A stretch of DNA of 64,000 nt, taken from contig CAZOAR010000006.1 in assembly GCA_964577985.1 (NCBI GenBank), positions 10,459 to 74,458 of the forward strand, written 5' to 3'. The notes beneath the pieces were generated by a model that ran no database searches, was not told the DNA's origin, and was given only the letters and a program-made list of their open reading frames with translations. Position numbers and translations under genes: made by a program. The DNA comes from an uncultured Gemmatimonadota bacterium. GTDB taxonomy: Bacteria; Gemmatimonadota; CAZMKB01; CAZNLH01. This document shows, piece after piece, positions 901-23,710 of this stretch; position 1 is the first letter of the stretch; each line of letters opens with the position of its first letter.

Positions 901-2727
901 TCAAGGGTCAGGGGTCGCATCAGGCGGCTCCTCCTCCATCGCCTTTTTCTGGGCCTGAAACATCTCCATCTTCTCTGTCTGTTCCTCCGTGACGCGCAGT
1001 ACCTCCTCTGGTGTCGCCACAACGTGTGGTGTGAGTATCAGCAGCAACTCACGCTTGAGGATCCTTCTCTTGTGGCTCTTGAAGAGATAACCTACGATCG
1101 GTATGTCTTTGAGAAGTGGCACCCCGAACTCTGACACGGTCGTGTCGTGGGTCATCAGGCCCCCTACGATGACACTGTTGTTGTCCTTCACAACAACGGA
1201 GGTCTCGAGTTCTCTTTTCGTGATGACATTCGCGTTGAAAAGGACTGTCTGCGTGAGGTCGTTGACCGACTGTTTCATCCAGAGGGAGACAAAACGTTCG
1301 TTGTTGATATGTGGCTTGATATCGAGTTCGATCCCCACATCCCGAAATTCTATGGTGACGTCTATGACTCCGCCCTCAAGTGTTCTCTTGGACGATTCGA
1401 AGGGGACCTCCTGCCCCACTATTATCTTGGCCTCCTTATTGTTGGACGTCAGCACGGTGGGTGTGGAAAGAATATTCACATCGGCGACCGACGAAAGGGC
1501 TTTGAGAGCCATCGAAGCCTGGTCCGGCCTCAGGATTCCATAGATCACACCCAGCGGCTCTTTCACCTCCCTGAGTACCCCCAGCGAATCGGCGGTGAAG
1601 TTCCCGGTAACGCTTCCTCGCGCCCCGGTTATCCCCAGGTGATCCTTGTTTTGTCGAAAGAAGTATTCCAGACCATAGTCCGTCTGCTTGTCGAGGGAGA
1701 CCTCCGCGATCATTACCTCTATCAGCACCTGGAGCGGTACTGAATCGAGTTTTTCTATGGTAGGTTTCAGCAGTTCGAAGACCTGCCTCGAGGTTCGAAT
1801 TACAAGTGAATTCGTAGACCTGTCCGCGACGATAGTAAGGCCGCTGGCGCTCGTGCCGCCAAGACCCAGAGTGTCGGCGGGTGTACTCTGCTGCCGCCTG
1901 CTGCGCCCCTGTCTCCTCTTGTTCCCGGTATCCTGAAATAGCTTCGTGAGGACCCGGACCAGGGAATCCGCGCTGGAATTCTCCAGATTATACACGAAGA
2001 TCTGAGGCGTAGTCGCCCCCACCATAGGGATATCAATCTCTGATATTATCCGGAGCATCCTCTCGACATTCGTGGAATAGTCTGTGATAACGATTGTGTT
2101 GACCCTCTCAAACTCAATTATGCTTCCGCCCTGAGACAGGATATTCCGGAGTTGACCAGCCACCTCGTTCGAAGTGATGTACCTCAGAGGAATGACCTGC
2201 GTCACTACCTTATCTTCACCTTCTTTGAGCCCCTCGATAGAAAACCCGACGTTCGTCCGAACCCCGCGTCTGGATGCTTCGGCAAGCGGCAGCACCTTCA
2301 TCACGTTGCCTGACGGCACGACTGCCATGTTGTAAACATTCAGTATGGACTCCACGAAGCCAGGGAGTTCATCTATGGGGATTTCATGAGATGTCTTGAC
2401 CGTGATTGTGCCACGGACATCTCTCCCCATCACATAATTCAACCCGACCAACTCGCTGATATTGCTCAACAACGTCGCCACGTCGACGTCCTCGAAGTTC
2501 AGAAACACATATTTCCCGTCCCTGACCCTGACTTCCTTCTCCCCGTCGGCATTCTCCTCATCCTGCTCCTCGGAAGGCGAACTGAAGGACCCCTCCAGGC
2601 CGAAATCTTCTAACATCTTTTCACGTTCGGGGGCGCTTCGTTCTTTTCTTTCCTGACCCCATATAGTCTGAGGCACGATGATCATCACGCAGACCAGGAA
2701 GCTTGCGACGCGTATAAATGTTTTCAT
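901..2727 (-). CDS. gspD: Type II secretion system secretin GspD (PilQ-like)
   Basis: N-terminal signal peptide. C-terminal secretin-domain signature (NNKEAKIIVGQEVPF ... LLKDIPIVGYLFKSHKRR ... LILTPHVV). Last gene of the gsp operon; start overlaps the gspC-like stop. Confidence 0.85.
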   Translation of the reverse strand: MKTFIRVASFLVCVMIIVPQTIWGQERKERSAPEREKMLEDFGLEGSFSSPSEEQDEENADGEKEVRVRDGKYVFLNFEDVDVATLLSNISELVGLNYVMGRDVRGTITVKTSHEIPIDELPGFVESILNVYNMAVVPSGNVMKVLPLAEASRRGVRTNVGFSIEGLKEGEDKVVTQVIPLRYITSNEVAGQLRNILSQGGSIIEFERVNTIVITDYSTNVERMLRIISEIDIPMVGATTPQIFVYNLENSSADSLVRVLTKLFQDTGNKRRQGRSRRQQSTPADTLGLGGTSASGLTIVADRSTNSLVIRTSRQVFELLKPTIEKLDSVPLQVLIEVMIAEVSLDKQTDYGLEYFFRQNKDHLGITGARGSVTGNFTADSLGVLREVKEPLGVIYGILRPDQASMALKALSSVADVNILSTPTVLTSNNKEAKIIVGQEVPFESSKRTLEGGVIDVTIEFRDVGIELDIKPHINNERFVSLWMKQSVNDLTQTVLFNANVITKRELETSVVVKDNNSVIVGGLMTHDTTVSEFGVPLLKDIPIVGYLFKSHKRRILKRELLLILTPHVVATPEEVLRVTEEQTEKMEMFQAQKKAMEEEPPDATPDP

Positions 2728-3344
2728 TGGCCCTTCCGTTTCTTTGAAGTCCAGGATTGTTGGCCACTGCTTTGTACTCCAGGCTTTGGCGTTCTTCTTT
2801 CAATCTTCTTCGAATTCACTGGTGTGTTTGCCTTCTTCTCAGCCTCACGTGGTTGAAGGAGAAGGATTATATCCCTGCCGTTCTTCGACAGGATGATCCT
2901 GTCATACAGTATCTCCCGCAATTCCATTCCACCGACATCATCACCCAGGCGATACGACTTGGTCTCGCCTCGCATGCCGCCCTTTCTGACGAGAGCAAAG
3001 CTCCTGTCTTCGTCGGAGAGCACGGTGCCTGTCAACTCAAACCCTTCGAACGATACAGTTCCCCCTTCGTCATCCCGGGACACCGTCTTTGTCCTTCCCT
3101 CGGGGGGCGTTCTGTCGGACGAAAAAAGGTTCTTCTCCACAATGCTGTCATAACTAAGACCGTCCAGTTCTCCGGAATCACTCGAAACCAGTGTCGGGAA
3201 CTCGATCAATTCTTCAGGGGGCCCGGCGTTTCCTTCCTCCGGCGGGTCAATTGTCCTGAAGACCTGGTAGAGCAATGACAGGGCGAGCATAGCAGAGAAA
3301 AGAACGAGCGCAGCGTTTATGTCACGCAAGCGGTGGACGTTCAT
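2724..3344 (-). CDS. gspC: GspC/PilP-like secretin-interacting protein (HR domain only, no PDZ)
   Basis: N-terminal TM helix followed by a beta-rich segment (LTGTVLSDEDRSFALVRKGGMRGETKSYRLGDDVGG ... IILLL) resembling the PilP/GspC HR domain. Sits between gspM-like and gspD, coupled to both. Confidence 0.45.
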   Translation of the reverse strand: MNVHRLRDINAALVLFSAMLALSLLYQVFRTIDPPEEGNAGPPEELIEFPTLVSSDSGELDGLSYDSIVEKNLFSSDRTPPEGRTKTVSRDDEGGTVSFEGFELTGTVLSDEDRSFALVRKGGMRGETKSYRLGDDVGGMELREILYDRIILSKNGRDIILLLQPREAEKKANTPVNSKKIERRTPKPGVQSSGQQSWTSKKRKGQ

Positions 3345-3964
3345 TGACCACCTCCATCCGAGAGCTCGTTTCCTTCAATAAACCCGGATATCGTCGCGGT
3401 GATCCGCAAGTCGTTGGATTCAGGCCTGTTCCTCTCCGAGAATCGGCCTTTACGGTAAGACCTTCTCATGCTACTGGGGGCGTTTACTTCAAGGTTTTGC
3501 ACAAAAAGCAGGTTGGAGTCTTCCTCCATCTTCATCAGAAAGTCGTGCAGTCCGGCAATATCGCAACTCATATTCAACTGAATCGATATCCGCTGGTGGT
3601 CGTCTATCACCACGGGCTGGTTCACATTTTCCCTCGTAATCGAAACCCCGGCTACATCGGCATACCCTCGGATCTTGTTGGACAATTCGGCCGCGGCGAG
3701 CGAAGATGTGTTTCCTGAAAGCAGAAGTCTGGAAACCGCCAGCATATCTCCCCGTCTCTCCTGGAGTCCCTTCTGGTACGCGGTCTCGTCCGACAGGATG
3801 GACTTATATTCCTGCAGAAGGCGATATGAGGAATCAAGCTTCTCGTCGAGCTCGGCCTTTGAACTGAAAAACGGCCCTACCAGCACGAGATAGACGGCAA
3901 CAAGCACCAGAAAACAACCGGCGCCAATCACCATCTTTCTCTCCCTGCTATTCAATGTCATCAT
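3341..3964 (-). CDS. gspM: GspM/PilO-like inner-membrane assembly protein
   Basis: Single TM (VIGAGCFLVLVAVYLVLVGPFF) then a coiled-coil periplasmic region. Operon position after gspL. The ORF track extends to 4027, but the start at MMTLNS avoids an 80-nt overlap with gspL. Confidence 0.5.
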   Translation of the reverse strand: MMTLNSRERKMVIGAGCFLVLVAVYLVLVGPFFSSKAELDEKLDSSYRLLQEYKSILSDETAYQKGLQERRGDMLAVSRLLLSGNTSSLAAAELSNKIRGYADVAGVSITRENVNQPVVIDDHQRISIQLNMSCDIAGLHDFLMKMEEDSNLLFVQNLEVNAPSSMRRSYRKGRFSERNRPESNDLRITATISGFIEGNELSDGGGQ

Positions 3965-5405
3965 CGTCGTTACCTGACCAGTCAACATCCGCAGTGATCC
4001 GAAAGGTTTCCACTTCTTCTCCGCCAAGATCGCGCGTGGTAGTCGGAGCCTCGAACTTCACATTCTTAAGGTATAGAGAGTTCTCGAGGAGCGGGATCAG
4101 AGTTGCGGCGCTCGACGCCTGTCCACTTATCCGCAACGGTTCACCCTGCTTCATCTCGAGCAACGTGAGCCAGGCATCTTCCGGAATTGCCTCGCTCAGG
4201 TTTTTCAGGATAACAAGCCAGTGTGGCTTGTCGGCCTGCAGATCATTCAGTGTATCTACTCGCCTTGCGAGGTCCTCGTACTCCCTCTTCAATTCCCTCG
4301 CCGCAGTCACCCGGCCTTCGATTGAGGCGAGCCCGAGCTGAACATCCTCGAGACGAGCTTCATCGCGCCAGACGGACGCTACGGAAAACGCAAAAGAGAG
4401 AAAGATGATCGCGAGTGCCAGTACTCCCGTGCGCACAAGTTCGTCTTTCTTGCGCTTCTTTTTGACTCTTCCCGGTTGCATATCCATCTTATGTATTGAA
4501 GCCTGATAACCGGAAAGGGCCAGCCCAAGCGCGTGAGATAGTTTTTCTTCTTCAAAACCCTCCGGGATTTCAACACCAGCGTCCTTCGCCTCGACTCTTT
4601 CGGACTTGATGTTGAAAGATCGTTCAAGATCAGGCACGAGTTTGCTCAGCCAGGCGCTGGAACCGGAATAGAAAATGGTATCAACCTTCCCGGCCCCTCT
4701 TGTCACTTCACTGTGGAATCCAATGACCCTCTCGATTTCGATCAGAATCTTTTCGGACTTCATCCCCTCCTTCTTGAAAGAGACCGTCCTGCAGGCCAGT
4801 GGATATCCGCCTGACACCAGCTCCATGGACGCACCCCACTCATCGATATTCAACAGGATGAACGTTCCACCGAGCTGTTTTTCTCTCCTGACGAGAAGAT
4901 TGCACAGTGCCATCTCTCTCATGTCGATCCTCAGCAACTCGAGTCCCGTGCCTTTGGCGATCGACATGATCTCTTCGATGTGGGTAGTGTGGGCTCCTGC
5001 CATTATAACATCCCGGCCCCCATTTCCGCCCCTGCCTATCTCCTGGTAGTCAAAAACGAGATGGTCGCCGCGGATCGGGAACATGCGTTCAGCCTGATTC
5101 TCCACCATAGGCTTCAGTTTATCCGAAGCCACCGGAGGAAGCGACACGCGTCGAAAAAAGTACCTGTCTCTCGAAAGCCCGAAGACGACTTTCTTTGACT
5201 TGATCTTGCCGGAATCGATCAATTCCCTTATCTTTAGCACAAGCATCTCACGCTCAGAGGCAGAGAGATTCTTATCCTCCGTGGAAAGTCCCAGCACACC
5301 ACACCCGCTTACTATTAGTCCTCGCACTCCTCGAGACAGTTCGACGAAGCGCAACTCTCCACCGGTGATATCGATTCCGACGACCGATCTGTAAGATATT
5401 ATCAA
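3948..5405 (-). CDS. gspL: GspL-like protein (PilM-like actin-fold cytoplasmic domain + TM + PilN-like periplasmic domain)
   Basis: N-terminus VVGIDITGGELRFVEL typical of PilM/GspL actin-like domain. Central TM (VLALAIIFLSFAFSVASVW). Coiled-coil C-terminus. ATGA overlap with gspK. Confidence 0.7.
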   Translation of the reverse strand: MIISYRSVVGIDITGGELRFVELSRGVRGLIVSGCGVLGLSTEDKNLSASEREMLVLKIRELIDSGKIKSKKVVFGLSRDRYFFRRVSLPPVASDKLKPMVENQAERMFPIRGDHLVFDYQEIGRGGNGGRDVIMAGAHTTHIEEIMSIAKGTGLELLRIDMREMALCNLLVRREKQLGGTFILLNIDEWGASMELVSGGYPLACRTVSFKKEGMKSEKILIEIERVIGFHSEVTRGAGKVDTIFYSGSSAWLSKLVPDLERSFNIKSERVEAKDAGVEIPEGFEEEKLSHALGLALSGYQASIHKMDMQPGRVKKKRKKDELVRTGVLALAIIFLSFAFSVASVWRDEARLEDVQLGLASIEGRVTAARELKREYEDLARRVDTLNDLQADKPHWLVILKNLSEAIPEDAWLTLLEMKQGEPLRISGQASSAATLIPLLENSLYLKNVKFEAPTTTRDLGGEEVETFRITADVDWSGNDDDDIE

Positions 5406-6448
5406 CTTATCACCCCATCCTCCGGGCCCAGTTCCCGCCAGGATAGAATTCTGAGACTGACCCTGGAGCCAAGAATCGTTCTGTATACAACAGCCTCGAT
5501 GCGTTTCTCCACGTTGCTTCCGTCGATCCGCCCGATCGACACGATCCTGAAGTGATACGACTTCGTGTCAATCGTCCTGTTCAGGACCGGGTAATCCTGA
5601 GACGTCTTATCCGTCGGATTCGACTGGCGAATGTATTGCATGAACTCCCCCTTACTCATGGGGGTGTAGTCGATATCTTCCCGACCTTTCGTGATGAACA
5701 TCGCGGACTGTTCATCGATGCCGGGCAGGGCCTCCAGGACATATTCATCGGCGGTATTGATATTTACCTTCCCTCTCCCAAAAACCGTTACACGGGAAGC
5801 CAGATCAGTATTATCTCCATCTCTCTTCTCTCCGTACATCAATTCCTCGTCTATTCCCCTCACAAGCAGCAGTTCCTCGATAGCAAGGAAATTCGAGTTC
5901 TTGCTCCTGTATGGTGGCTCGAGGGACATATAGTAATCGTCCTCGGCGCCATTCAGCATGATAACATCGTCGCCGTCCCGCCAGTCTATAATCGCATCCG
6001 AGATGGAATCCGAGGCTGCAGGACTCGACCCTGTACCCTTCAGCAATCCGCGTATCACATCCCGCGACGCCAGGTTGATGTTAATCCTGCTCTCCTCATC
6101 CGTGACGGAAACGTGGTAGCTCCCATCACCAAGTGCAACATTGGCGATATCAGAAAAGTAGTCAGAAAGAAAGCGTTGATCGACGTTTATTCCATCTTTC
6201 GCAGGATGACTCAGGAGCGCCAGAGCGTGATTAACACCCGCCATTGCCAGGAGTTGAGCCTTTTCGTTATCCTTGAAATTTCTAACAATGTATGCTTCTT
6301 CCCGGATTCCCCTTGAAAAATAGGTCGCCGTGACGCCGAGGACAATAATAATCCACAAGGTTATGATCAAGGCTATTCCTCTCTCGTTCGCCACGGATGT
6401 GCTCCTGGTCGGGAATCCCTCTTCTCCTCCGGTAACGAAGCTTATCAT
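5402..6448 (-). CDS. gspK: Minor pseudopilin GspK
   Basis: ERGIALIITLWIIIVLGV hydrophobic N-terminus without Glu5 (the GspK hallmark). Large periplasmic domain. Probable true start at MISFV (the ORF track starts earlier, at 6586). Confidence 0.7.
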   Translation of the reverse strand: MISFVTGGEEGFPTRSTSVANERGIALIITLWIIIVLGVTATYFSRGIREEAYIVRNFKDNEKAQLLAMAGVNHALALLSHPAKDGINVDQRFLSDYFSDIANVALGDGSYHVSVTDEESRININLASRDVIRGLLKGTGSSPAASDSISDAIIDWRDGDDVIMLNGAEDDYYMSLEPPYRSKNSNFLAIEELLLVRGIDEELMYGEKRDGDNTDLASRVTVFGRGKVNINTADEYVLEALPGIDEQSAMFITKGREDIDYTPMSKGEFMQYIRQSNPTDKTSQDYPVLNRTIDTKSYHFRIVSIGRIDGSNVEKRIEAVVYRTILGSRVSLRILSWRELGPEDGVIS

Positions 6449-7158
6449 TTCACCGGCCTCTCCGGAAGGTACAGGAGCAGTGGCAGTCGCGAAACCTGGA
6501 GGGCTGATCCATCCTCCTCTATCCAGCTCATCGTGATCTCTATGGCTTCGGGCAGTTCGCTTTCTGAGTCCCATTCGTCTTGCCACATCGATTCGTCGTT
6601 TTCATCGGTATGCAGATAGCTGATATCCATCCCCTCCAGCCCCACCGCCAGTTGCGTAGTATCCGCCTTCCAGGGTCCATAAAGCGGTCTTCGGGTCATC
6701 AGGAGATCAAGGTTGTCGCCCGCATCATCCTGAGAAAGGCCTATCCAGACAAGAGACAGGATCCTTGAGCCGTCCGGATAGCGCGTGAAATTGTTAAACG
6801 TCAGGCTGTCAAACGGTTTTCCCTGCCTTATCGCGTCTTCTCCTCTGAAGGCGATTCTCTTTTCCTCCTCCACACCGGGCGTCCTGCCCCCTGGTCTGCC
6901 GAAAAACTCGTCACCCAGGAACACGGTCCAATCGCTACTGCTGGGTTTAAGATAGGAGGAGGTCAATTCCCTTGAGATCAACTCACGTGAGATCCTTATC
7001 CTCTGAAAGGTGTCTCCTTTCCTGCGACTGCTGTCCACGCTCCGCAGTCCAACGCTCAGACTCCCGTATAGTACACTGACAATAAGCCCCAGTATGGTCA
7101 TCGAGACAATCAGCTCAATAAGCGTGAAACCGGTTCGCGGGAAATCCTCTCTCAGCAT
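6445..7158 (-). CDS. gspJ: Minor pseudopilin GspJ
   Basis: Prepilin motif RTG|FTLIELIVSMTILGL. Probable start at MLREDFPRTG (the ORF track starts at 7254 with an implausibly long leader). Confidence 0.7.
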   Translation of the reverse strand: MLREDFPRTGFTLIELIVSMTILGLIVSVLYGSLSVGLRSVDSSRRKGDTFQRIRISRELISRELTSSYLKPSSSDWTVFLGDEFFGRPGGRTPGVEEEKRIAFRGEDAIRQGKPFDSLTFNNFTRYPDGSRILSLVWIGLSQDDAGDNLDLLMTRRPLYGPWKADTTQLAVGLEGMDISYLHTDENDESMWQDEWDSESELPEAIEITMSWIEEDGSALQVSRLPLLLYLPERPVK

Positions 7159-7183
7159 CTCCTCGACATGAAGGAGAGCAGGG

Positions 7184-7612
7184 TCAGAAGAAAAGCCCTT
7201 TTCGCCTTTCTCCGTAGTTATAGAGACGCGTCGCCAATTCAATCTCTTTTTCAAGTAATCCCTCTCTCCACTTTACCGAGACCCGGAGCTCCCTCAGGTT
7301 GTCATCGTCGGTGGGTGTCACATCTGAGACCCAGGCATAGCCTTCGTGCGGGTCCTCAAACGTGCCTTCCCTCTGACCGAGCGCGGGAAACCCCTCTATT
7401 TCTATCTGATTGATCTTCCACTCCGCGAGAAGAACGGCCTCCGTATTCTTGTGGACGTCATGTCCCAGGGCGGTTCCGGCTGAGATGACCTCGAGAACAA
7501 CAGTGAGGCCAAGCCCGAGAATAGTGATGGCCACCATCAACTCGATGAGCGTAAAGCCAACGGGATATGCGTAATTCTGCCCTCTGCGATCAGGAACCCC
7601 CTTACTCAACAT
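7184..7612 (-). CDS. gspI: Minor pseudopilin GspI
   Basis: Prepilin motif PVG|FTLIELMVAITILGLGL; small 142-aa protein. Confidence 0.7.
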   Translation of the reverse strand: MLSKGVPDRRGQNYAYPVGFTLIELMVAITILGLGLTVVLEVISAGTALGHDVHKNTEAVLLAEWKINQIEIEGFPALGQREGTFEDPHEGYAWVSDVTPTDDDNLRELRVSVKWREGLLEKEIELATRLYNYGERRKGLFF

Positions 7613-8078
7613 ACACCCCTCCAGTCACGCCCCGGATCTCGACAGTCATGATTGCCCCCCCATCATCTTCAAGAATGATCCTTCCCTCCGTGGCGTTTCC
7701 GAGCGGATAAAACACGATGGCATCCTCTGTGGGACCGGTATCAATCTCGAGTGTCAAGCTGATCGTTTCCGGAACCACCACTGAAGACATGAACGCTTCA
7801 CTCTGCTGACCCTCCACGCAGGCAACCCACCCTTCTTCTTCATCGACGTCCACAGCGACCGGAACATTCCTGAGGACTGATAGTTCGCGGGCGTTTCTCA
7901 AGTACGTAGCTACTCTCTTTGAGAATTTCGACAATTCCCCTCCACCAAGCACTCCCCCGAATCGCGGTACTGTTACTCCCAGCATTATTCCCATTATCAC
8001 CAGGACCACGACCAGCTCCAGCAGCGTAAAACCTCTCCGCGCATCATCACCGGAGCATGCAGACTCGCATTTTCTCAA
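7602..8078 (-). CDS. gspH: Minor pseudopilin GspH
   Basis: Prepilin motif RRG|FTLLELVVVLVIMGI. The ORF track extends to 8201 with a 48-aa leader overlapping gspG. An in-frame TTG at 8078 preceded by GGAG is the more plausible start. Confidence 0.6.
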   Translation of the reverse strand: MRKCESACSGDDARRGFTLLELVVVLVIMGIMLGVTVPRFGGVLGGGELSKFSKRVATYLRNARELSVLRNVPVAVDVDEEEGWVACVEGQQSEAFMSSVVVPETISLTLEIDTGPTEDAIVFYPLGNATEGRIILEDDGGAIMTVEIRGVTGGVYVE

Positions 8079-8124
8079 CTCGTTGCTCCCGCTGTTGTTC
8101 CTGCGAACGGGCGACAGTAGCAGA

Positions 8125-8610
8125 TCACTCCCAGCTGAAGAGGTCCTGATCCTCATCCTCTCCGCCCCGTTCACCATCTCTCCCCAGCGTATACAGATCA
8201 TACCCGGAAGGATTCACTTCTCCGGGGCTGACATAGTAATAGGGGCGGTCCCACGGATCACTCGGGACCTCTATCTTCTTCAGATAAGGACCATCCCAGT
8301 TCTTTGGAAACGGTGAAAAATCGGGTTCACTGACCAGCGCCTCCAGCCCCTGTTCGGAGGTCGGGTAATAGTCATTGTCAAGGCGATAGTTATCCAGTGC
8401 GAGCCCGAGAAGTTCGATCTGGGCCTTCGCCGCGTTCGTTTTGGCCTTTCCGACGTTTCTGAAGAGCCTTGGGCCCACCAGGCCTGCGAGGACAGCAATG
8501 ATGACAACCACAACGATCATCTCGATGAGGGTAAACGCGGCAGTGGACCTGCCTGGAGCGTCTCTTTCCAACCGTCCGATCAATTTCTTCATAAGGCTCT
8601 TCCTCTCCAC
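8125..8610 (-). CDS. gspG: Major pseudopilin GspG
   Basis: Strong GspG signature (FTLIEMIVVVVIIAVLAGLVGPRLF ... YRLDNDYYPTSEQGLEALV ... DPWDRPYYY). Unusually has Ala rather than Gly at position -1 of the prepilin cleavage site (STAA|FTLIE). Confidence 0.85.
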   Translation of the reverse strand: MERKSLMKKLIGRLERDAPGRSTAAFTLIEMIVVVVIIAVLAGLVGPRLFRNVGKAKTNAAKAQIELLGLALDNYRLDNDYYPTSEQGLEALVSEPDFSPFPKNWDGPYLKKIEVPSDPWDRPYYYVSPGEVNPSGYDLYTLGRDGERGGEDEDQDLFSWE

Positions 8611-8654
8611 AACATGGTTAGACCTCTATCTCTGCGATTACGTGAGCAGAGTTA

Positions 8655-9881
8655 TCAGAATGGAAGCTCATTCAAACTGGTTATAGCCATAAGCAACGAC
8701 AGCACTACAAAACCGACAATACCACCAAAGAGAAGTATCATAGCGGGTTCTATCAAGGTGATCATGCTCTTGATTGCCACACTCGCCTCATTTTCATAAG
8801 CGTCAGCGACCTTGAGCAGCATCGGGCTCAGGTTGCCTGTTTCCTCACCGACGGAGATCATGTGTATCGCCATGGAAGGGAACACGTTTCGCTCTTCCAG
8901 CGGCGGCGCTATGCTCTCGCCCTCCTTGAGGCTGTTGTGAACCTCCTGGATGGCATTAGCGAAGATCTGGTTTTGAAATGTCTCCTTCGCCACGAGGAGG
9001 GCCTGAAGGATTGGCACTCCGCTGTCGATCAGTGTCCCGAGGGTCCTGCTGAATCTCGACACCGCGATTTTTTTGTTCAGGTCTCCGACCAGTGGAGCGG
9101 TGATCTTAAAACTGTCCCACTTGAATCGTCCCCGCTCTGTTCCGACATAGCCTCTTACGCTCAACGCCACAAGAGAAACAAATATGAGGAGCAGCCACCA
9201 GTAAGAAGTTATGAAACCGCTGATTGAGAGGAGAATTGAGGTGCTGAGAGGCAACGACTGACCCAGGTCCTCAAAGATGCCGGTGAATCGAGGCAAAACG
9301 AAGGTCAGGAGCACAAGGACCGCCGTCCCCCCTACGACGGTAAGCAATATGGGGTATATCATAGCGGACTTGACCTGTGTCCGTAGACGCTGTTCCTCTT
9401 CTATGTAGTCGGCCAGACGCCTGAACGCAACCTCGAGGAACCCACCAAACTCCCCTGCGGAGACTACACTGACATAGAGCTGTGAAAAATAGTGAGGATA
9501 GTCCGCCATACTATCCGCCAGTGATTTGCCCGCCTGAACATTGCTTCGTATCTTTCTGAGAACCTCCTTGAAACTGGCGTCCTGGACTATGTTGAGGACT
9601 ATTGCAAGTGCCCTGTCGAGAGGCACTCCTGAGTCGAGCATAGTTGCGAGCTGAACCGTGAATGGCACGACAAACCTGGTCTTTCCCCTCAGTCTCGCCA
9701 CAATTTCGCTGATATCTATATCAGCGAGCGACTTTTGTGTCTCCGCCTCTTCTGTAACGCTTATCGGATAGAGATCTATCTGACGGAGATGGTCAACTAC
9801 CGCAACGGAGGTCCGGGCCTCCATGTCACCCGTGAGGAGATTTCCCTCCCTGTCTGACGCTTCATACCTGAAACTCGGCAT
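8655..9881 (-). CDS. gspF: T2SS inner-membrane platform protein GspF
   Basis: 408 aa with two GspF-type repeats and three TM segments; conserved position after gspE. Confidence 0.85.
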   Translation of the reverse strand: MPSFRYEASDREGNLLTGDMEARTSVAVVDHLRQIDLYPISVTEEAETQKSLADIDISEIVARLRGKTRFVVPFTVQLATMLDSGVPLDRALAIVLNIVQDASFKEVLRKIRSNVQAGKSLADSMADYPHYFSQLYVSVVSAGEFGGFLEVAFRRLADYIEEEQRLRTQVKSAMIYPILLTVVGGTAVLVLLTFVLPRFTGIFEDLGQSLPLSTSILLSISGFITSYWWLLLIFVSLVALSVRGYVGTERGRFKWDSFKITAPLVGDLNKKIAVSRFSRTLGTLIDSGVPILQALLVAKETFQNQIFANAIQEVHNSLKEGESIAPPLEERNVFPSMAIHMISVGEETGNLSPMLLKVADAYENEASVAIKSMITLIEPAMILLFGGIVGFVVLSLLMAITSLNELPF

Positions 9882-9891
9882 CTATCGCCTG

Positions 9892-11466
9892 TCACTCCTC
9901 TTCCTGTGTGACTCGCAGCACCTCTTCAACGGTGGTTTCGCCAGCGAGCGCCTTTCGCCAGCCATCGCTCCTCAACGTGGTCATACCTGACCTTACCGCC
10001 TCCTCTTTCAGTTCCGTCAGAGATCTGCTCTCGAGAATCAGACGCCTCAACTTGTCATTCATAATAAGCAGTTCGAAAATACCCACTCTCCCGCGGTAAC
10101 CCGTAAAATCACACTCATCGCAACCCTTTCCATGATATAGTGACGCCTCGCCTCCAGATTCCGGCTCGAGCCTCAATTCCTCCAGAATGCCTTTCCCGGG
10201 CTTTTCCTCCTCTTTGCACGAGGGGCAGATACGTCTTACGAGACGCTGTGCCATAATTCCCTCTACGGCGGAGGAAACGAGATACCCCTCGACGCCCATA
10301 TCGACCATTCTGGTGACGCCTCCGGGCGCATCATTAGTGTGGATAGTGCTCAAGACAAGGTGGCCGGTCAGCGCGGAGTGAATCGCGATCTCTGCCGTTT
10401 CGAGATCACGCATCTCCCCTATCATTATCACATCAGGATCCTGCCTGACTATCGACCGCAGCCCGGTGGCGAAGGTAAACCCTATCTTCGGTTTGATAGG
10501 AATCTGATTGATTCCCGTCAGCTGATACTCCACCGGATCTTCAAGGGTTATGATCTTCTTCTCCTGAGAATTAATCTTGTCAAGGACCGCGTACAGTGTG
10601 GTCGTCTTTCCACTTCCGGTTGGTCCTGTTACGAGGATAATGCCGTGCGGTCGTACGATCAGTCCCTTGAAACCTGCGTACATCGACTCTGAAAACCCGA
10701 GGTCTTCAAGGCTCATCATTATGCTGCTCTTGTCGAGTATGCGGAGAACAACACTCTCGCCGTGCAGCGTCGGAACCGTGGAGACCCGGAAATCGATGTC
10801 CTTGTTCTTGATCCTCATGCGCATCCTTCCATCCTGCGCAAGCCTCCTCTCGGCTATGTTGAGCTCAGCCATAATCTTGAGCCTCGAGATAATGGCGGCC
10901 TGAAATCGTTTTGCCGGTGAGGATATGTCGTGCAGAATTCCATCGATTCTGTATCTGACGCGCAGTTGATCTTCCATCGCTTCGAGGTGGATGTCGCTCG
11001 CTCTTCTTTTCAGCGCCTCCATAATGATAAGATTAACCAGCTTGATCACGGGAGCCTGGCTGGCAAGGTCTCTAAGGTCCTGTATACCGTTTCCGCGCTC
11101 CTCGACCAGAGCAAGGTCCTCTTCACTCATGTCCTTGACCATCTTCTCGATGGTCTCCACACCCTCACCGTGGTACTTCTTTATTGCCTCCAGAATCTCG
11201 TCAGCGGTGCTTGCTACCGGTTCGATCTCAAGATTGAGGAGAGTCTTCAGGTCGTCGATTGTATATAGATCATTGGGATCGGCAAACGCCACCAGGAGCG
11301 ATCCATTCTTCATCCGCAACGGGACAAAACGGTGTTCCTCCATGTAACCTGGAGATATCCTCAAGTTCAGCGATTCGTCTATTTCCTTCTCGACCTTCAC
11401 AGTCTCCGGAAGCCCGTTGGCCAGATTGTAGGCAAAACTTTCCTCTGTCTTTTCGTCACGTTCCAA
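9892..11466 (-). CDS. gspE: T2SS ATPase GspE
   Basis: N1E domain, Walker A GPTGSGKTTTLYAVL, Asp/His boxes, tetracysteine motif CPSC ... CDEC. TTG start with GGAGAGA Shine-Dalgarno. Confidence 0.9.
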   Translation of the reverse strand: MERDEKTEESFAYNLANGLPETVKVEKEIDESLNLRISPGYMEEHRFVPLRMKNGSLLVAFADPNDLYTIDDLKTLLNLEIEPVASTADEILEAIKKYHGEGVETIEKMVKDMSEEDLALVEERGNGIQDLRDLASQAPVIKLVNLIIMEALKRRASDIHLEAMEDQLRVRYRIDGILHDISSPAKRFQAAIISRLKIMAELNIAERRLAQDGRMRMRIKNKDIDFRVSTVPTLHGESVVLRILDKSSIMMSLEDLGFSESMYAGFKGLIVRPHGIILVTGPTGSGKTTTLYAVLDKINSQEKKIITLEDPVEYQLTGINQIPIKPKIGFTFATGLRSIVRQDPDVIMIGEMRDLETAEIAIHSALTGHLVLSTIHTNDAPGGVTRMVDMGVEGYLVSSAVEGIMAQRLVRRICPSCKEEEKPGKGILEELRLEPESGGEASLYHGKGCDECDFTGYRGRVGIFELLIMNDKLRRLILESRSLTELKEEAVRSGMTTLRSDGWRKALAGETTVEEVLRVTQEEE

Positions 11467-11743: not shown

Positions 11744-11829
11744 TGGTGCCGAAGGCCGGACTCGAACCGGCACGGGGATACCCCACTGCCCCCTCAAGAC
11801 AGCGTGTCTACCTGTTCCACCACTTCGGC
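11744..11829 (-). tRNA. tRNA-Leu (anticodon GAG), class II with long variable arm
   Basis: Hand-folded. Acceptor stem GCCGAAG/CTTCGGC, D-arm, anticodon stem CTGTC/GGCAG with loop TTGAGGG (anticodon GAG). Long variable arm. T-arm GCCGGTTCGAGTCCGGC. Encoded ACCA 3' end. Immediately downstream of secG. Confidence 0.8.
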
Positions 11830-11873
11830 ACCCTGGAACATTACACATGGATCCATGGACTCCCGGTCAGCCA

Positions 11874-12272
11874 CTATTCCTGTTGACTGCCTTCTCCGGC
11901 GGTCTCCGTACTCTCCGTAGCGGCAGATTGCTCGGCAGCGTTTATCAACATCTCCGTTTCCGGATTGAAAGGCTGCGGTTCTCTGATCGCACGGCCCTCA
12001 GACTGAGGACTTGCACTCGAGGTAGCACCCGTTGAGGTGACTGCGAGGAAAAGAGATGTGACGAAAAATATCGTCCCGAGTACGGTTGTAAACTTGCTGA
12101 GAAAGGTCGCCGTTCCTCTTCCCCCCAGAACGGCATCCGTTCCTCCAGCTCCCCCGAATGCGCTGGCGAGCCCTCCGCCGGTCCCAGACTGAAGGAGTAC
12201 CACAACAACGAGTACAATACTTGTCAGGAGATGAATTGCTATAAGGATCTGAAACATGATATCTGGTATCAC
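11874..12272 (-). CDS. secG: Preprotein translocase subunit SecG
   Basis: Two TM helices flanking a Gly-rich loop (LLQSGTGGGLASAFGGAGG), matching the SecG pattern. Followed by tRNA-Leu. Confidence 0.8.
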   Translation of the reverse strand: MIPDIMFQILIAIHLLTSIVLVVVVLLQSGTGGGLASAFGGAGGTDAVLGGRGTATFLSKFTTVLGTIFFVTSLFLAVTSTGATSSASPQSEGRAIREPQPFNPETEMLINAAEQSAATESTETAGEGSQQE

Positions 12273-12797
12273 CTCTGCATTATTGAGTTAACGAAGCAAT
12301 GATTGAGCACGACTGTCTACGCCGCGCGTGACACTAAATAATAAGACCGACCGGGAAACGTGTCAATGCTGTTGTACAATAAGAGCTGGACTTCTGGATC
12401 TCAATGGCATGGATATTGCGATTTTTCGGCCTTCGACAGGTCCCGGGCTCCACGAGGGATGACTTGGGAGGCGGCAGCCCGGGATTGTCTGGACTTTTTC
12501 ACAGAGATTGGATTATCGGACATGAACCAGGAGGAAGAAAACATTCGCGAGCAGATCCATACTCGTAGACGGATCATGCCTGATTCCCTCCCACCCGATC
12601 GGCACGCCGGGCGTGTGGATCATTATTCATCGTTCAAGGCTCACAACGGTGGCGGCGAGCAGGGAGGGGCCCATTCAGGTTCGAGACAGAGACCAGGGGC
12701 GCTCCACGGTCTTAGAAGAAGCGTGTTCGTGGCAAGCATGACAGGTTACAGGGTGCTGCGGGCACCAACAATGAAAGCGGAAAGGGGGTGAGAAGAG

Positions 12798-13208
12798 ATG
12801 CGCAACGCGAAATCGCGAGAGGGTTTCACCTTGATCGAACTGGTGATCGTCCTGGTAGTCCTCGGCCTGCTGGCGTCAGTTGCAATTCCGAGGTACTTCG
12901 ACCTGCAGAGGGACGCGGAGGTTGCGGCCAATATGGCGTGGATGGGTGGCCTTCGCAGCGCCATCGGCATCCAGATGGCCGGTGTGGCAATGAACAAGGT
13001 CACGAGTCCCGATCCTCTGAGCAGTACTCCAAGCTGGAAGAGGACGACGGTCGAAAATCTGCTCACAGGAGGTTCGACCGCAAGGCCAACCTCGCTGAGT
13101 TCGGTAGGCACCAACAAGTGGAAGGGGTACTACAACGCGACCAGCACTACGAACTGGACGCTCAGCTGGAACTCCACGAATGGCCTCTGGGAGATACAAG
13201 GACCATGA
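12798..13208 (+). CDS. Type IV pilin-like protein (prepilin, class III signal peptide), paralog 1
   Basis: Leader MRNAKSREG | FTLIELVIVLVVLGLLASVAIPRYF (Glu5, hydrophobic alpha1-N). 127-aa mature protein. No Cys. C-terminal half Ser/Thr/Asn-rich with N-x-S/T sequons (NAT, NWT, NST). GGGGGTGA Shine-Dalgarno. Confidence 0.8.
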   Translation: MRNAKSREGFTLIELVIVLVVLGLLASVAIPRYFDLQRDAEVAANMAWMGGLRSAIGIQMAGVAMNKVTSPDPLSSTPSWKRTTVENLLTGGSTARPTSLSSVGTNKWKGYYNATSTTNWTLSWNSTNGLWEIQGP

Positions 13209-13380
13209 CGAGAACCGACGGCGGCATGACGATCAATGCCGTGGCTTTCGTTTCTGAACCACGCCGGGGCCGCGTGAGACGGCCCCGCCCACTTATCGTA
13301 TCTGGATGGAAGCATGTGTCGTGTTCAACCTGGCGCGAAGCATGGGCGCCAGACAACCCATGGACGAAACGGAGGTAACG

Positions 13381-13791
13381 ATGAAGCGGTCTGAGAGAGA
13401 AAGCGGTTTTACTCTCATCGAGCTGGTCATTGTCCTGGTAATAATAGGACTCCTCTCCGCGGTGGCTATCCCCCGTTACTATGACCTTCAGCGTGACGCT
13501 GAGGTCGCGGCGAATTCGGGATGGTTCGGCGGCCTGAGGACGGCCATAGGCATTCAATTGACCGGTGTTGTGCTGGGTAAGACAACCGGCCCCGATCCAA
13601 GAGAAAGCACTCCTGCGTGGAATCTGACTTCGGTCGAAGGTCTCGTGATGGGCGGCACACAGGCCAGGCCGACCTCTCTCAGCGCACTTGGCACCAACAA
13701 GTGGACGGGCTATTACAACGGAACCAGTACTACGACCTGGAAGCTGAGTTACAACGCTTCCATGAACACATGGGAGATAACAGGCCCCTGA
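13381..13791 (+). CDS. Type IV pilin-like protein, paralog 2
   Basis: Leader MKRSERESG | FTLIELVIVLVIIGLLSAVAIPRYY. About 65 % aa identity to paralog 1, with diverged nucleotide sequence. Sequons NLT, NGT, NAS. The ORF track start at 13306 is upstream of the GGAGGT Shine-Dalgarno-supported ATG at 13381. Confidence 0.8.
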   Translation: MKRSERESGFTLIELVIVLVIIGLLSAVAIPRYYDLQRDAEVAANSGWFGGLRTAIGIQLTGVVLGKTTGPDPRESTPAWNLTSVEGLVMGGTQARPTSLSALGTNKWTGYYNGTSTTTWKLSYNASMNTWEITGP

Positions 13792-13805
13792 GGCGTGTTG
13801 GTGCG

Positions 13806-14066
13806 AATCTACCCCAGCACCAGTTCAGCTTGCCGGAGTGGTGCCGGGAAAAACGACAACCCCGGATCCCGGGTCGAGCGCTTCCACCCGGGACAGGACC
13901 TCGGCGGAGATCCTGATCACTGGCGGCACAGCCGCCAGGCCGACTTCCCTGAATGCAGCGGGGACGGATCAATCAGTGGGGCGAGTACTATAACCTGACC
14001 AGCACAACGACCTGGTCGCTCTACAGAAACAGCCCGGCCGGGATGCGGAATGTTTCCGGGCCCTGA
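13806..14066 (+). pseudogene. 5'-truncated, frameshifted third pilin paralog (lacks leader and alpha1-N helix)
   Basis: Translates (two frames) to ..QLAGVVPGKTTTPDPGSS..ILITGGTAARPTSLNAAGTD / QWGEYYNLTSTTTWSLYRNSPAGMRNVSGP*. Colinear with the C-terminal about two-thirds of paralogs 1 and 2. A 4-nt insertion/duplication (atca/gatc) near 13966-13975 breaks the frame. No start codon or signal peptide. Confidence 0.55.
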
Positions 14067-14232
14067 CAGGCCGATAGCGCAAGATCTGTTCAATTGAGTC
14101 TCCTCTCTCCGATCAGGCGCCGACCGTGATCCCGGGGCCATCAGCCTTTGTCACCACGATCAGCGCCCGGCTCGCTCCTTTAAGCGCTCGGATGGATCTG
14201 CCGGGGCTACTATCTCCGGCACACTTACGCCT

Positions 14233-16656
14233 ATGCTCAATACGACTCGAGAATACGAGAAGAAAGTGAAGGATCTGCTCCCCTATCTGCTGATAGTCGT
14301 TGCGGTCACTCTTTCCTACTACGGCGTGCTTGCCGGAAAATATGTCCTCCTCGACAGGGATCTCTACTGGTTCTTCTACCAGAACAGCCATTACCTGGCC
14401 CGGAGCCTCGCCGCCGGCAGGATTCCGTTGTGGAATCCGTATGCATACGGCGGAGAGCCGTTTTTTGCCCAGGCGCAACCTGGCGTTCTCTATCCACTGC
14501 ACTGGCTCTATTCATTCATACCCGTCGACGAGTTGTTCAGCAGACTGCTGGTCCTTCACGTGGCCATGCTCGGCGTGTTCTCCGCTCTGCTGGTCAGGGA
14601 ACTCGGCGGAGGCCGAACGGCAGCGGCGCTTGGAGGCATTGCGATCGCCTTCAGTGGAATAACTGCCTCGTTGATCTATCTTCAGTCCTCTCTCTTCGCT
14701 ATTGCCTGGCTGCCGCTAGCAATGTGGTCCCTGGTTCGCTCCCTCAGGAATGACTCCCCTTCTCATGCCATTCTATCTGGAATGATTTTCGGGATTATGA
14801 TATATGTAGGCGGTATCGAGGTCCTGGCGATGGGGTTGTTTCTCGGTGCTGTCGTCCACCTTTTTCCCGGCCTTTTTCCAATAGCGGGGCCGACGCCCCG
14901 GGCGTCCCGCAGGTTTGCACTCTTCGGGTTGACGGTCCTGACCATGTCACTCGTCAGTGCCGTTCAGCTCCTTCCCTTCTATGAACTGACGCGCTATTCC
15001 TACCGCACGGGCGGTGTCGACGTCAAGGAGGCACTTACCTGGTCGCTACGCCCGCAGGAATGGTTATACCTGGTTCTTCCGGATGTCTTCCGACGCGGAA
15101 AGGAGTTCTACTGGGTCGACCAGAACTGGCTAAGGACCATTTATGTCGGGATAGTACCCGTTCTCCTCAGCCTTGCTTTCGTCCTGAAACTCCGAAAAAG
15201 GGCACTCGGCTTCCTGTGCCTGGGTGGTCTCTGTCTTCTTCTGGCTACAGGAGGGAATCTTCCCCTGTATGGCGACGTCATTCATTGGATACCCGGTCTG
15301 CGGTCGATTCGCTATCCTTCCAAGTTCCTGATGCTCATGGGATTTGCAGTGGCTCTTTCTGCTCCGTTGGGATGGGAGCAGCTCAGGAATAGAGGGACCG
15401 ATACATCCGCGAGCAGACGCTTTTCGCTTGTTTTCCTTGTGCTATCCATTATTTCCGCGTTGTCCCTTTTCCTGACGGAGTTTCTGGATGCATCCGTACA
15501 ACATGCCCTGGCCGGCCTGGTCCAGAGAGATGAGCTGGAGCTCCTGCCAGGGGGAATCATCCACAACATCGACAGGCTCCTCGCCCTTTCAGCGGTCACC
15601 TCTCTGGCCATTTACGTCGCATCGAAAGAAGGCAGGATGCGTCGACTGGGAAGGGCCGCTCTCCCGCTTCTGCTGGTCGTGGACCTGATGGGGGCGATGC
15701 CATATGCTACAGTATTTCATGAGAAGGACTGCCTCGATTCAAAACCCGAACGCGCAGCCGAGCTGGAGAAGGAAGATAGAGAATTCCGCGTATTCTCGCA
15801 CAACAGCCTGTGGAACAAGCAATTCCCCGACGTGAACGACCTCTTGAAGGCCGGCACCGGGCTCTTCATGCCGAACGCCACAATGCGGTATGGCATAGAC
15901 CACAGCCAGGGATACAGGGTCCTCACTCTATCGAGGATCGATCAGATCACCACCTCAATAGCGAGGACGAAAAAACCCGACCAATCCCGGCTTGTCGACC
16001 TCATGAACATTCGATATCTACTGTGGCCTTCCAGGATAGTATCTCCGGACTATCGACTGATCGAATCGTCCGACAGCCTCTATTTTTACGAGAACAGGAG
16101 AGCTATGCCAAGGGCGTTCCTCGCCGAGGATTACAGGGTCTGCAGCACCGGTGTCGAGTTCCAGACGATAATGGAAGATCCGGAGTTCGATCCCCGCGGA
16201 CTTGTTCTCCTCGACAAACGTCCTTCTCTTCCCGACGGGTGGAATGGCAAACCGGAGGAGAATGGAGGGGAGGAAGATGAGGTAACGATCACCAGTTATG
16301 CCCCGGAACGCGTGAGATTGACGGTACGATGCAGTGATCCGAAGTTCCTGGTCCTGGGCGACGCGTACTTCCCCGGATGGAAGGCCAGGGTCAACAACAA
16401 ATCTACCGAGATATACAGGGCGGACTATGCGTTTCGCGCAATCGCCATGGAGCCCGGCGAGAGTGTGGTGGAATTCACCTACGAGCCTGAAAGCCTCGCG
16501 ATGGGGTCATGGATAAGCGCAGTAACGCTCTTTCTGCTCATGGGACTGGGGTTTATCACAGGGCCTCTCCTCAGGCCGTCAGCGGCCCTGTTGCGTGCAG
16601 CAGGCAATCATCTGCCCGAATTTCCCAGGGTCAAGACTCGCTCCTCCCACCAGTAG
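14233..16656 (+). CDS. YfhO-family polytopic membrane protein (GT-C fold glycosyltransferase-like)
   Basis: 807 aa with at least 12 predicted TM segments N-terminally, a periplasmic C-domain, and the YfhO-type C-terminus (..AYFPGWKARVNNKSTEIYRADYAFRAIAMEPGESVVEFTYEP.. plus a final TM). Immediately downstream of the pilin genes on the same strand. Confidence 0.55.
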   Translation: MLNTTREYEKKVKDLLPYLLIVVAVTLSYYGVLAGKYVLLDRDLYWFFYQNSHYLARSLAAGRIPLWNPYAYGGEPFFAQAQPGVLYPLHWLYSFIPVDELFSRLLVLHVAMLGVFSALLVRELGGGRTAAALGGIAIAFSGITASLIYLQSSLFAIAWLPLAMWSLVRSLRNDSPSHAILSGMIFGIMIYVGGIEVLAMGLFLGAVVHLFPGLFPIAGPTPRASRRFALFGLTVLTMSLVSAVQLLPFYELTRYSYRTGGVDVKEALTWSLRPQEWLYLVLPDVFRRGKEFYWVDQNWLRTIYVGIVPVLLSLAFVLKLRKRALGFLCLGGLCLLLATGGNLPLYGDVIHWIPGLRSIRYPSKFLMLMGFAVALSAPLGWEQLRNRGTDTSASRRFSLVFLVLSIISALSLFLTEFLDASVQHALAGLVQRDELELLPGGIIHNIDRLLALSAVTSLAIYVASKEGRMRRLGRAALPLLLVVDLMGAMPYATVFHEKDCLDSKPERAAELEKEDREFRVFSHNSLWNKQFPDVNDLLKAGTGLFMPNATMRYGIDHSQGYRVLTLSRIDQITTSIARTKKPDQSRLVDLMNIRYLLWPSRIVSPDYRLIESSDSLYFYENRRAMPRAFLAEDYRVCSTGVEFQTIMEDPEFDPRGLVLLDKRPSLPDGWNGKPEENGGEEDEVTITSYAPERVRLTVRCSDPKFLVLGDAYFPGWKARVNNKSTEIYRADYAFRAIAMEPGESVVEFTYEPESLAMGSWISAVTLFLLMGLGFITGPLLRPSAALLRAAGNHLPEFPRVKTRSSHQ

Positions 16657-17349
16657 TCCATCTATGTCGGGCTCCGACATCAACGCTGCGGTGTTGGAGG
16701 GATTGGCGCTGCCGCCATACAGGATTGGAATTGACTCCGCAAGCTCAGCATTTACCCTTGAAGCAATCGCCTCTCTCAGCATCGCGTGTACTTCCTCGGC
16801 CTGAACGGGCGTGGCGGTAACCCCGGTCCCGATCGCCCAGACCGGTTCGTAAGCGATATAGATCCCCGATAGTGCGACAGGGTCGATTCCATCGACGCCC
16901 TCGATAAGCGATTTTCTGGTTACGTCCTCTGTCTCACCGGCTTCACGCTCCTGCCTCGTCTCTCCGAGGCACAGGATGGGCTTCAACGATGCGGCAAGCG
17001 CAGCTTTGAGCTTCCGGTTGACTGTTTCGTTTGTCTCTCCGAAGTACTTCCTTCGCTCCGAATGTCCGATAAGGACAAACTCCGCGCCTGTGTCGGATAT
17101 CATATCTGCGGAGACCTCCCCCGTGAACGCCCCTGAGCTCTCCCAGTACAGGTCCTGGGCGCCCACACCGGCACACCTCACCTGGCCCGTCAAATCCGCG
17201 GCCAGGGGAAGATACGGGTATGGCACAAAGAAGAGGGCCTCCATGTCATCCTCTATCACGAAGTCTTCCAGGAGAAGCCTGAAATAATCCCTGATCTCAC
17301 CTGCTGAGAGATTCATCTTCCAATTGGCTGCAAGGACTCTCTTCCTCAT
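16579..17349 (-). CDS. tpiA: Triosephosphate isomerase
   Basis: ANWKMN, IGHSERR, AYEPVWAIGTG, YGGS motifs. Stop overlaps the yfhO-like 3' end (convergent). Confidence 0.9.
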   Translation of the reverse strand: MRKRVLAANWKMNLSAGEIRDYFRLLLEDFVIEDDMEALFFVPYPYLPLAADLTGQVRCAGVGAQDLYWESSGAFTGEVSADMISDTGAEFVLIGHSERRKYFGETNETVNRKLKAALAASLKPILCLGETRQEREAGETEDVTRKSLIEGVDGIDPVALSGIYIAYEPVWAIGTGVTATPVQAEEVHAMLREAIASRVNAELAESIPILYGGSANPSNTAALMSEPDIDGLLVGGASLDPGKFGQMIACCTQQGR

Positions 17350-23058: not shown

Positions 23059-23091
23059 GTAACAAATGCTGAAAAACAGGAGGAAACATCC

Positions 23092-23697: not shown

Positions 23698-23710
23698 GAG
23701 TCGGGGTGAT

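Follow-up and report, generated by a model that had tools for sequence, protein, structure and literature searches.

Glycosylation of pilins bears on adhesion and on how pili are assembled, and it influences surface chemistry as well as recognition by phages and the immune system. To our knowledge, the bacterial enzymes described for this modification are oligosaccharyltransferases of the PglL/TfpO type and the GT-C enzyme TfpW. Here we analyze a 64-kb stretch of DNA (64,000 nucleotides of contig CAZOAR010000006.1 from an uncultured Gemmatimonadota bacterium; hereafter the window), in which two tandem pilin genes are followed on the same strand by a gene for an 807-amino-acid (aa) membrane protein of the YfhO family. 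A preliminary description of this DNA had proposed a candidate pilin-glycosylation cassette with a layout like that of pilA-tfpW but with another GT-C family, a proposal that is supported by the GT-C identity of the enzyme, its clade-wide pairing with pilins, and the glycosyltransferase family 2 (GT2) genes and pilus operons found in sister loci. We estimate a probability of roughly 60% that the 807-aa protein acts as a GT-C glycosyltransferase of the YfhO family and that its specialised targets are the pilins encoded directly upstream of it. The three genes are as follows (a slash in a pilin sequence marks the prepilin cleavage site; TM, transmembrane).

12798..13208, + strand: pilin 1, a 136-aa prepilin with the leader MRNAKSREG/FTLIELV.., an MshA-like N-terminal half and a Cys-free, Thr/Ser-rich beta-sheet domain
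13381..13791, + strand: pilin 2, a 136-aa paralogue of pilin 1 that matches PF07963
14233..16656, + strand: 807-aa YfhO-family GT-C glycosyltransferase with a multi-TM N-domain, a periplasmic beta-rich domain (~495-752), a final TM helix and a cytoplasmic tail

The arrangement most like this one is pilA-tfpW of Pseudomonas aeruginosa group IV, where a gene directly after that of the major pilin encodes a polytopic GT-C protein whose periplasmic loop 1 bears an acidic motif and which modifies pilin Ser/Thr residues in the periplasm from a polyprenol-phosphate sugar (10.1101/2020.04.19.049825). TfpW, compared by description only, has 646 aa, 11 TM helices and a C-terminal TPR domain (10.1101/2020.04.19.049825), whereas the window enzyme belongs to PF09586 (YfhO) and has a terminal TM helix as well as a periplasmic domain that is beta-rich; no TPR domain is matched in the 807-aa protein, and no genes of a D-Araf pathway were seen in the window. 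Enzymes of the PglL/TfpO (PilO) type glycosylate pilin as well, and tfpO is likewise found directly after pilA, but they are members of the Wzy_C/O-antigen-ligase family and transfer oligosaccharides linked to undecaprenyl diphosphate (Und-PP) en bloc.

Enzymes of the YfhO type have been described in Bacillus, Listeria and streptococci. The founding examples, Bacillus subtilis CsbB-YfhO and Listeria GtlA-GtlB, pair the GT-C enzyme with a GT2 that makes a C55-P-sugar (PMC5836110); their acceptor is lipoteichoic or wall teichoic acid, whereas the gene partner here is a pilin. The streptococcal pairs GtrB/PgtC2 and PgfS/PgfM1 belong to the same Pfam family, have a DXD motif in an extramembrane loop that is cited as catalytic for PgtC2 and PgfM1, and follow a two-step route in which a GT2-made polyprenol-phosphate sugar is transferred to Ser/Thr acceptors on extracytoplasmic proteins (PMC12041528). 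Here, in contrast, the host is diderm, the similarity to the PgfM1/PgfM2 models is only remote, the acceptor would be a folded pilin domain rather than a disordered tail, and the enzyme is genetically dedicated to pilin genes. The preliminary description had named lipoteichoic acid as the YfhO acceptor; teichoic acids are indeed known acceptors, but the account was incomplete, as Ser/Thr-rich protein regions are O-glycosylated in streptococci (PMC12041528). This streptococcal precedent makes the present proposal less novel and at the same time more plausible. A search of the accessible literature found no paper joining YfhO with pilin, pilus or type IV pili, consistent with the earlier view that a YfhO-type enzyme for pilin had not been described, and the pilin-YfhO cassette is probably an undescribed route of adding sugars to pili.

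Identity and predicted active site of the YfhO-family enzyme

The 807-aa protein matches PF09586 with 67.9 bits (cut-off 28.5) and contains both the PGWKA..AFRA..EFTYEP stretch and the terminal TM helix, so that the YfhO-family architecture read from the sequence at the outset has been borne out; Pfam gave no match to STT3 or to the Wzy_C/O-antigen-ligase family. Among the matches listed, all homologues that cover at least 98% of the query at no less than 54% identity have a PF09586 match as well. An AlphaFold (AF2) model built on an alignment with 56 homologues reached a mean pLDDT of 90.4 and a pTM of 0.91, and all significant matches of a Foldseek search against the Protein Data Bank (PDB) were GT-C enzymes (AftD, PglB, STT3, AftA, EmbA/B, Pmt), in agreement with the GT-C fold expected beforehand; a phmmer search of the enzyme against PDB sequences returned no match. 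We are confident that the protein is a YfhO/GT-C enzyme. Of the NCBIfam equivalog models, PgfM1 was hit with 25.4 bits (cut-off 1500) and PgfM2 with 16.5 bits (cut-off 1400), in the C-terminal region only.

Hydropathy and the positive-inside rule place the N-terminus and the basic C-terminal tail in the cytoplasm, and the loop after TM helix 1 as well as the 495-752 domain in the periplasm. The beta-rich soluble domain (~495-752) is followed by a helix (753-791) and the basic tail. The presumed catalytic motif lies in the first of the periplasmic loops:

14353..14361, + strand: D41-R42-D43 (DxD), first periplasmic loop after TM1, presumed catalytic motif

Across 56 diverse YfhO homologues D43, W67, P69, G74 and R519 are invariant, and the residues conserved family-wide comprise D43, W67-N-P-Y70, R258, D484 and R519. 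A second set (R42, G194, E196, Q297, K364, R448, V563) is conserved specifically in the clade of pilin-linked enzymes described below; R42, the central residue of the DxD motif, is present in 97% of sequences inside that clade versus 8% outside.

These residues bear on the idea that the protein is not a transferase at all but a pilin accessory or assembly factor comparable to TfpY/TfpZ. Genes right after pilA often code for non-enzymatic accessory proteins (PMC11841053). The invariance of the GT-C catalytic loop residues (D43, WNPY, R258, D484, R519) and the GT2 genes of the polyprenyl-phosphate-sugar type that adjoin the YfhO gene in sister loci make such a role very improbable.

At its 3' end the YfhO gene (+) overlaps convergently with tpiA (-) by 78 bp (16579-16656; ~80-87 bp in relatives). 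The encoded YfhO tail, ..HLPEF.R.K.RSSHQ, is conserved despite low model confidence (pLDDT <50), and the sole reason for this conservation may be the tpiA coding sequence on the opposite strand.

Pairing of YfhO and pilin genes across relatives

All comparison sequences were metagenomic, with taxon labels taken from the records of the metagenome-assembled genomes (MAGs); a metagenome scan provided 80 further YfhO loci at 23-36% identity, and neighboring genes were labelled from open reading frame (ORF) calls, phmmer seeds and the prepilin motif. In close relatives (Gemmatimonadota-labelled MAGs, YfhO 54-60% identical), the order of the window is kept, with gsp-secG on one side, two to three pilin genes leading into the YfhO gene, and tpiA-pgk-gap on the other side. 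The whole gspE-secG-pilin-YfhO-tpiA-pgk-gap region is, however, syntenic in the window's own clade, as would also be the case if a housekeeping envelope-glycosylation gene happened to lie beside pilin genes. Conservation within this clade is therefore uninformative when taken alone, and the argument rests on more distant loci. At ~30% identity, L009 and L013 present another context, T2SSE-T2SSF followed by two to three pilins and a YfhO gene (or two) on a single strand.

In a neighbor-joining (NJ) tree of 87 homologues the pilin-linked enzymes form one clade. Each of the 26 core members with upstream DNA available has one to three pilins immediately upstream on the same strand, as against 0 of the 44 determinable homologues outside the clade (Fisher p ~9e-20, with no phylogeny correction). 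The pairing is thus kept in related genomes, where the preliminary description had suggested looking for it, and it persists among clade members that are less than 30% identical and occupy at least four different gene contexts, which a coincidental adjacency fits poorly; we regard that explanation as hardly credible. Judged by gene order, the pairing is more than chance. Outside the clade, YfhO genes stand beside GT2 and LPG_synthase_TM genes or in sugar-biosynthesis clusters. The linked pilins are recognizable as a type. They are short (mature length 107-132 aa) and MshA-like, most of them lack Cys, and their N-terminal helix is followed by G-x-L-G-x-L-R; the strands are rich in Thr, and a P-T-T motif recurs.

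Several sister loci add genes that a glycosylation pathway or a pilus would need. A small GT2 gene directly follows the YfhO gene in L016, L018, L024 and L030, and at L095 a GT2 comes after an intervening methyltransferase gene; no GT2 adjoins the YfhO gene of the window. The GT2s of the former four loci best match AglJ, DPhHxTase (dolichyl-phosphate hexose transferase), PpgS, ArnC and PgfS, all below equivalog cut-offs, so that their class is indicated but not their identity; by these best matches they would belong to the donor-loading class that a GT-C pathway calls for. L024 has the genes PilC-pilin-YfhO-GT2-PilM/N-PilO in this order on one strand. At L096 (Deltaproteobacteria-labelled MAG) and its close relative L095 (unlabelled), two to three pilins and the YfhO gene lie opposite an MSHA-like cluster encoding MshE, a TPR protein, an AAA ATPase, a secretin and PilM/N. 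The YfhO protein of L095 is 72% identical to that of L027, a clade member. Their sub-clade is abundant, and its members are annotated as hypothetical throughout; for the L027 enzyme at least 899 database clusters were retrieved at E <= 1e-30, their pilin linkage not having been checked gene by gene. There is a better-than-even chance that the pilin-linked YfhO subfamily, with hundreds of uncharacterised members in Deltaproteobacteria-labelled, Gemmatimonadota-labelled and other MAGs, constitutes a third class of pilin glycosyltransferases, independent of PglL/TfpO and TfpW.

The resemblance to MSHA pili extends from the N-terminal half of the pilin to the position of the Deltaproteobacterial sister loci beside MshE-TPR-AAA-secretin-PilM/N and to the MshEN domain on the GspE protein of the window. 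The window differs from MSHA systems in that the pilin C-terminal domain has no detectable relatives beyond its clade, and in that the adjacent machinery is a canonical type II secretion system (T2SS) set with its own GspG. An intermediate relative found by exhaustive search, P0011 (39% identical), is encoded between a SAF-domain protein and a Flp-type pilin with the sequence ..GQG/MTEYIIIVALIA.. (G/MTEYIIIV..); on the evidence of this one lineage, the YfhO branch may not be limited to a single class of type IV filament subunits.

Synteny of this kind shows linkage and says nothing of the acceptor, and an enzyme tied to the pilus might instead act on a minor pilin, on another periplasmic pilus component, or on an envelope or exopolysaccharide glycan needed by the pilus. 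YfhO homologues elsewhere modify teichoic acids (PMC5836110), and relatives that are not linked to pilins reside in polysaccharide-type clusters. The constant partner across the clade is nevertheless a short Thr/Ser-rich pilin, present in one to three copies immediately upstream, while other pilus genes are variable or absent nearby, and we consider a different acceptor rather unlikely. In a diderm of the Gemmatimonadota or Deltaproteobacteria type, neither lipoteichoic nor wall teichoic acid is expected.

Some loci showed further peculiarities. In L098 (3358-6772), the closest outgroup YfhO gene (39% identity) is flanked by genes for a CpaB/RcpC-like SAF protein and a Flp-type pilin, with a PMT_2-family GT-C gene just upstream; in L095 (4142-7055), a PMT_2 GT-C gene and a GT2 gene lie a few kb upstream of the pilin-YfhO pair. 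A second GT-C may thus belong to systems of the L098/L095 type. Tandem YfhO paralogues, mutually 85% identical, follow three pilins in L009 (6420-11587). In L013, a related locus, the place of the second YfhO gene is held by an unannotated 560-aa ORF, two methyltransferase genes and a GT2 gene. The YfhO gene that remains in L013 is broken into two ORFs. Many distant YfhO homologues (P0021, P0023, P0032 and others, 1320-1410 aa) are fused to a flippase domain of the Wzx/MurJ type (Polysacc_synt, MatE, MurJ in Pfam).

The pilins and candidate modification sites

Both tandem genes encode pilins with a class III signal, as had been read from their sequences: PF07963 (N_methyl) is matched with 29.8 bits by pilin 1 and 31.2 bits by pilin 2 (cut-off 21.2), TIGR02532 is matched too, the cleavage context is ..REG/FTLIELVIVL, and the two proteins are 65% identical over 136 aa (BLASTP). 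The start of pilin 2 was placed at 13381, because a GGAGG motif precedes this ATG by 6 nt and orthologues align from that Met; a 161-aa ORF beginning at 13306 was rejected as over-long. The AF2 model of pilin 1, based on an alignment of 30 orthologues (pLDDT 91.4; helix 12-64, a loop, and four strands at 101-134), is of the canonical pilin shape predicted for such proteins, with a long alpha1 helix and an antiparallel beta-sheet. In a PDB sequence search the solved protein nearest to it was 9lab, the major pilin MshA, with an E value of 3e-12 and an alignment covering the N-terminal half, and a fold search against the PDB gave PAK pilin and FimA as best matches, both weak (E 0.09-0.18). A word-indexed search with the C-terminal domain returned 31 matches, all at least 60% identical and from the same clade, and none outside it.

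The preliminary description had stressed that the pilins lack cysteine. Neither contains one, and with it the C-terminal disulfide-bonded D-region is missing, a feature that is typical of type IVa pilins though not universal; the same holds for Cys in 35 of 48 distinct YfhO-linked pilins in the listed set. Yet the Cys-free state is not distinctive at this locus, since most of the neighboring T2SS pseudopilins are without Cys as well (GspH has one). A more marked difference is seen in composition, with Ser plus Thr accounting for ~25% of the globular part in YfhO-linked pilins versus ~11% in T2SS pseudopilins at the same loci.

Three N-x-S/T sequons are present per pilin (NAT/NWT/NST and NLT/NGT/NAS), as noted earlier, but the claim that they are conserved could not be upheld. 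The sites are occupied in 22/30, 20/30 and 23/30 orthologues, none being invariant, and composition-preserving shuffles contain 1.84 and 1.31 sequons on average for the two pilins, with 27% and 12% of shuffles reaching three. Sequon enrichment was dropped as a line of evidence, the shuffling test being not significant. These numbers matter for the idea that the enzyme N-glycosylates the Asn of pilin sequons, which in the window's clade would amount to periplasmic N-glycosylation outside the STT3/PglB family. In its favor, each sequon is kept in about two-thirds to three-quarters of orthologues, and the structures that the enzyme matches best include PglB and STT3. The latter similarity is at the level of the GT-C fold only, there being neither a Pfam match to STT3 nor a WWD motif in the 807-aa sequence, and the pilins linked to YfhO genes in other clades have zero to one sequon, and often none at all. 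Taken with the sequon count, which does not exceed expectation from composition, and the hydroxyl groups that serve as acceptors of known YfhO enzymes (PMC12041528, PMC5836110), this makes N-glycosylation highly improbable. O-linkage to Ser/Thr is more likely than N-linkage for the same reasons: sequons within expectation and not invariant, no STT3 signature in the enzyme, and hydroxyl acceptors in the YfhO family.

As to where such O-linked sugars might be attached, one stretch stands out:

13143..13151, + strand: S116-T117-T118 of pilin 1, candidate O-glycosylation site (by inference only)

Among 30 orthologues T118, S99 and T/S84 are conserved at 100%, T83 and S116 at 97%, and MAFFT puts S116-T117-T118 opposite the P-T-T motif that recurs in YfhO-linked pilins of other clades. 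From these alignments S116-T117-T118 and R-P-x-S99-L are put forward as candidate glycosylation sites.

Proposed pathway and points that weigh against it

In the pathway that we envisage for the specialised YfhO enzyme, a cytoplasmic GT2, presumably encoded elsewhere in this genome though adjoining the YfhO gene in sister lineages, would load a monosaccharide onto polyprenol (undecaprenyl) phosphate, and the lipid-linked sugar would be flipped to the periplasmic face. There, the periplasmic DxD loop (D41-R-D43) of the enzyme would move the sugar to Ser/Thr hydroxyls of the C-terminal beta-sheet domain of a pilin whose alpha1 helix still anchors it in the inner membrane. Once glycosylated, the pilin would be polymerised, possibly by the neighboring T2SS/MSHA-like machinery. 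The identity of the enzyme, with its fold and conserved catalytic residues, that of the pilins, and the strict subfamily-wide synteny between the two are established, and enzyme identity and the functional tie to the pilins are much firmer than acceptor, linkage or sites; the pilin as acceptor, O-linkage, the type of donor, the sites and the assembly machinery are what we infer from them.

Several points besides the own-clade synteny weigh against this pathway. The Ser/Thr residues of the pilins sit, according to the model, in a folded beta-sheet domain, whereas the streptococcal acceptors carry theirs in a disordered tail rich in Ser/Thr. Among the ORFs scanned in the 64-kb window there was no GT2, no GtrA-like flippase and no sugar-nucleotide gene, and the donor-loading GT2 may be encoded elsewhere in the genome. 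The YfhO gene begins 441 bp beyond pilin 2. The NJ tree of 87 YfhO sequences was computed from metagenomic ORFs and carries no bootstrap or other support values, and pilins were detected by a motif regular expression, those of L019, L021 and L036 (GFTTIEL variants) being assigned from translations by eye.

If the proposal is correct, pili would have a third and mechanistically distinct glycosylation route, which uses single sugars from polyprenol phosphate, and protein glycosylation by YfhO enzymes would reach beyond streptococci into diderm bacteria. A function would also be assigned to a large set of 'hypothetical' genes that neighbor MSHA/T2SS-like pilus clusters in metagenomes from sediment and soil. 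The genomic rule is simple and testable: a short, Cys-free, Thr-rich pilin, then a YfhO gene.

A decayed third pilin copy in the spacer

In the 441-bp spacer that separates pilin 2 from the YfhO gene lies a remnant that had been overlooked in the preliminary description:

~13823..14066, + strand: decayed third pilin copy, 5'-truncated and frameshifted, with no leader and no alpha1 helix, ending in ..NVSGP before a stop codon

Two reading frames jointly rebuild pilin residues ~57 to 136, with ~70% DNA identity to pilins 1 and 2 and several indels that are not multiples of three. Since a relative (L004) keeps three intact pilin copies, the remnant is, on sequence comparison, most likely a decaying pseudogene. 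A silent cassette of the pilS kind was set aside in view of the single copy, the ~70% DNA identity, the non-triplet indels and the three intact copies in the relative.

Genomic surroundings

Upstream of the pilins, the minus strand carries a tRNA-Leu gene and secG, with a T2SS-type cluster beyond them; downstream of the YfhO gene follow tpiA, pgk and gap, assigned through synteny with relatives.

901..11466, - strand: complete T2SS-type cluster gspD-C-M-L(PilM/N)-K-J-I-H-G-F-E

Its Pfam matches comprise Secretin, T2SSC, T2SSM, PilM/PilN, T2SSK, T2SSI, GspH, T2SSG, T2SSF and T2SSE+MshEN. For gspJ (6445-7254), N_methyl is the sole match in the window, and the gene was assigned from relatives, where T2SSJ is matched weakly. 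All clade relatives share this T2SS neighborhood, and the cluster is a candidate for the machinery that would assemble the pilins; a prepilin peptidase (PilD/GspO) was not identified in the window. A scan for sigma-54 promoters upstream of the pilin and YfhO genes gave no convincing match, and an Rfam scan of 11400-16800 for riboswitches detected tRNA-Leu only.

A 143-aa ORF (12360-12791, +) takes up most of the 525 bp that separate secG from pilin 1; it has no Pfam match and is called as a gene on an identical JGI contig (L097). This ORF may be a genuine small gene or may instead overlie the promoter region of the pilins.

Further away in the window, 22954-28029 (+) encodes LexA (confirmed by Pfam) followed by ORFs of 394 aa and 1045 aa, which by synteny with L001 correspond to a Y-family polymerase (IMS) and a DnaE-type polymerase; in gene content the stretch resembles SOS mutagenesis cassettes of the lexA-imuB/dinB-dnaE2 type. 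At 62681-63931 (-) lies a gene for a subtilase with a C-terminal sorting domain of the type IX secretion system (T9SS; Por_Secre_tail/CHU_C), which fits an FCB-group host such as Gemmatimonadota, and a DUF4438 protein is encoded at 37083-37976 (-) among genes for acyl-CoA dehydrogenase, thiolase and enoyl-CoA hydratase (a beta-oxidation cluster). Finally, 19774-20568 (-) codes for a ComFC-like protein with a double zinc ribbon and a phosphoribosyltransferase domain. Members of the ComFC family have been connected with DNA uptake by competent bacteria, and this gene may therefore bear on the role of the pilus.

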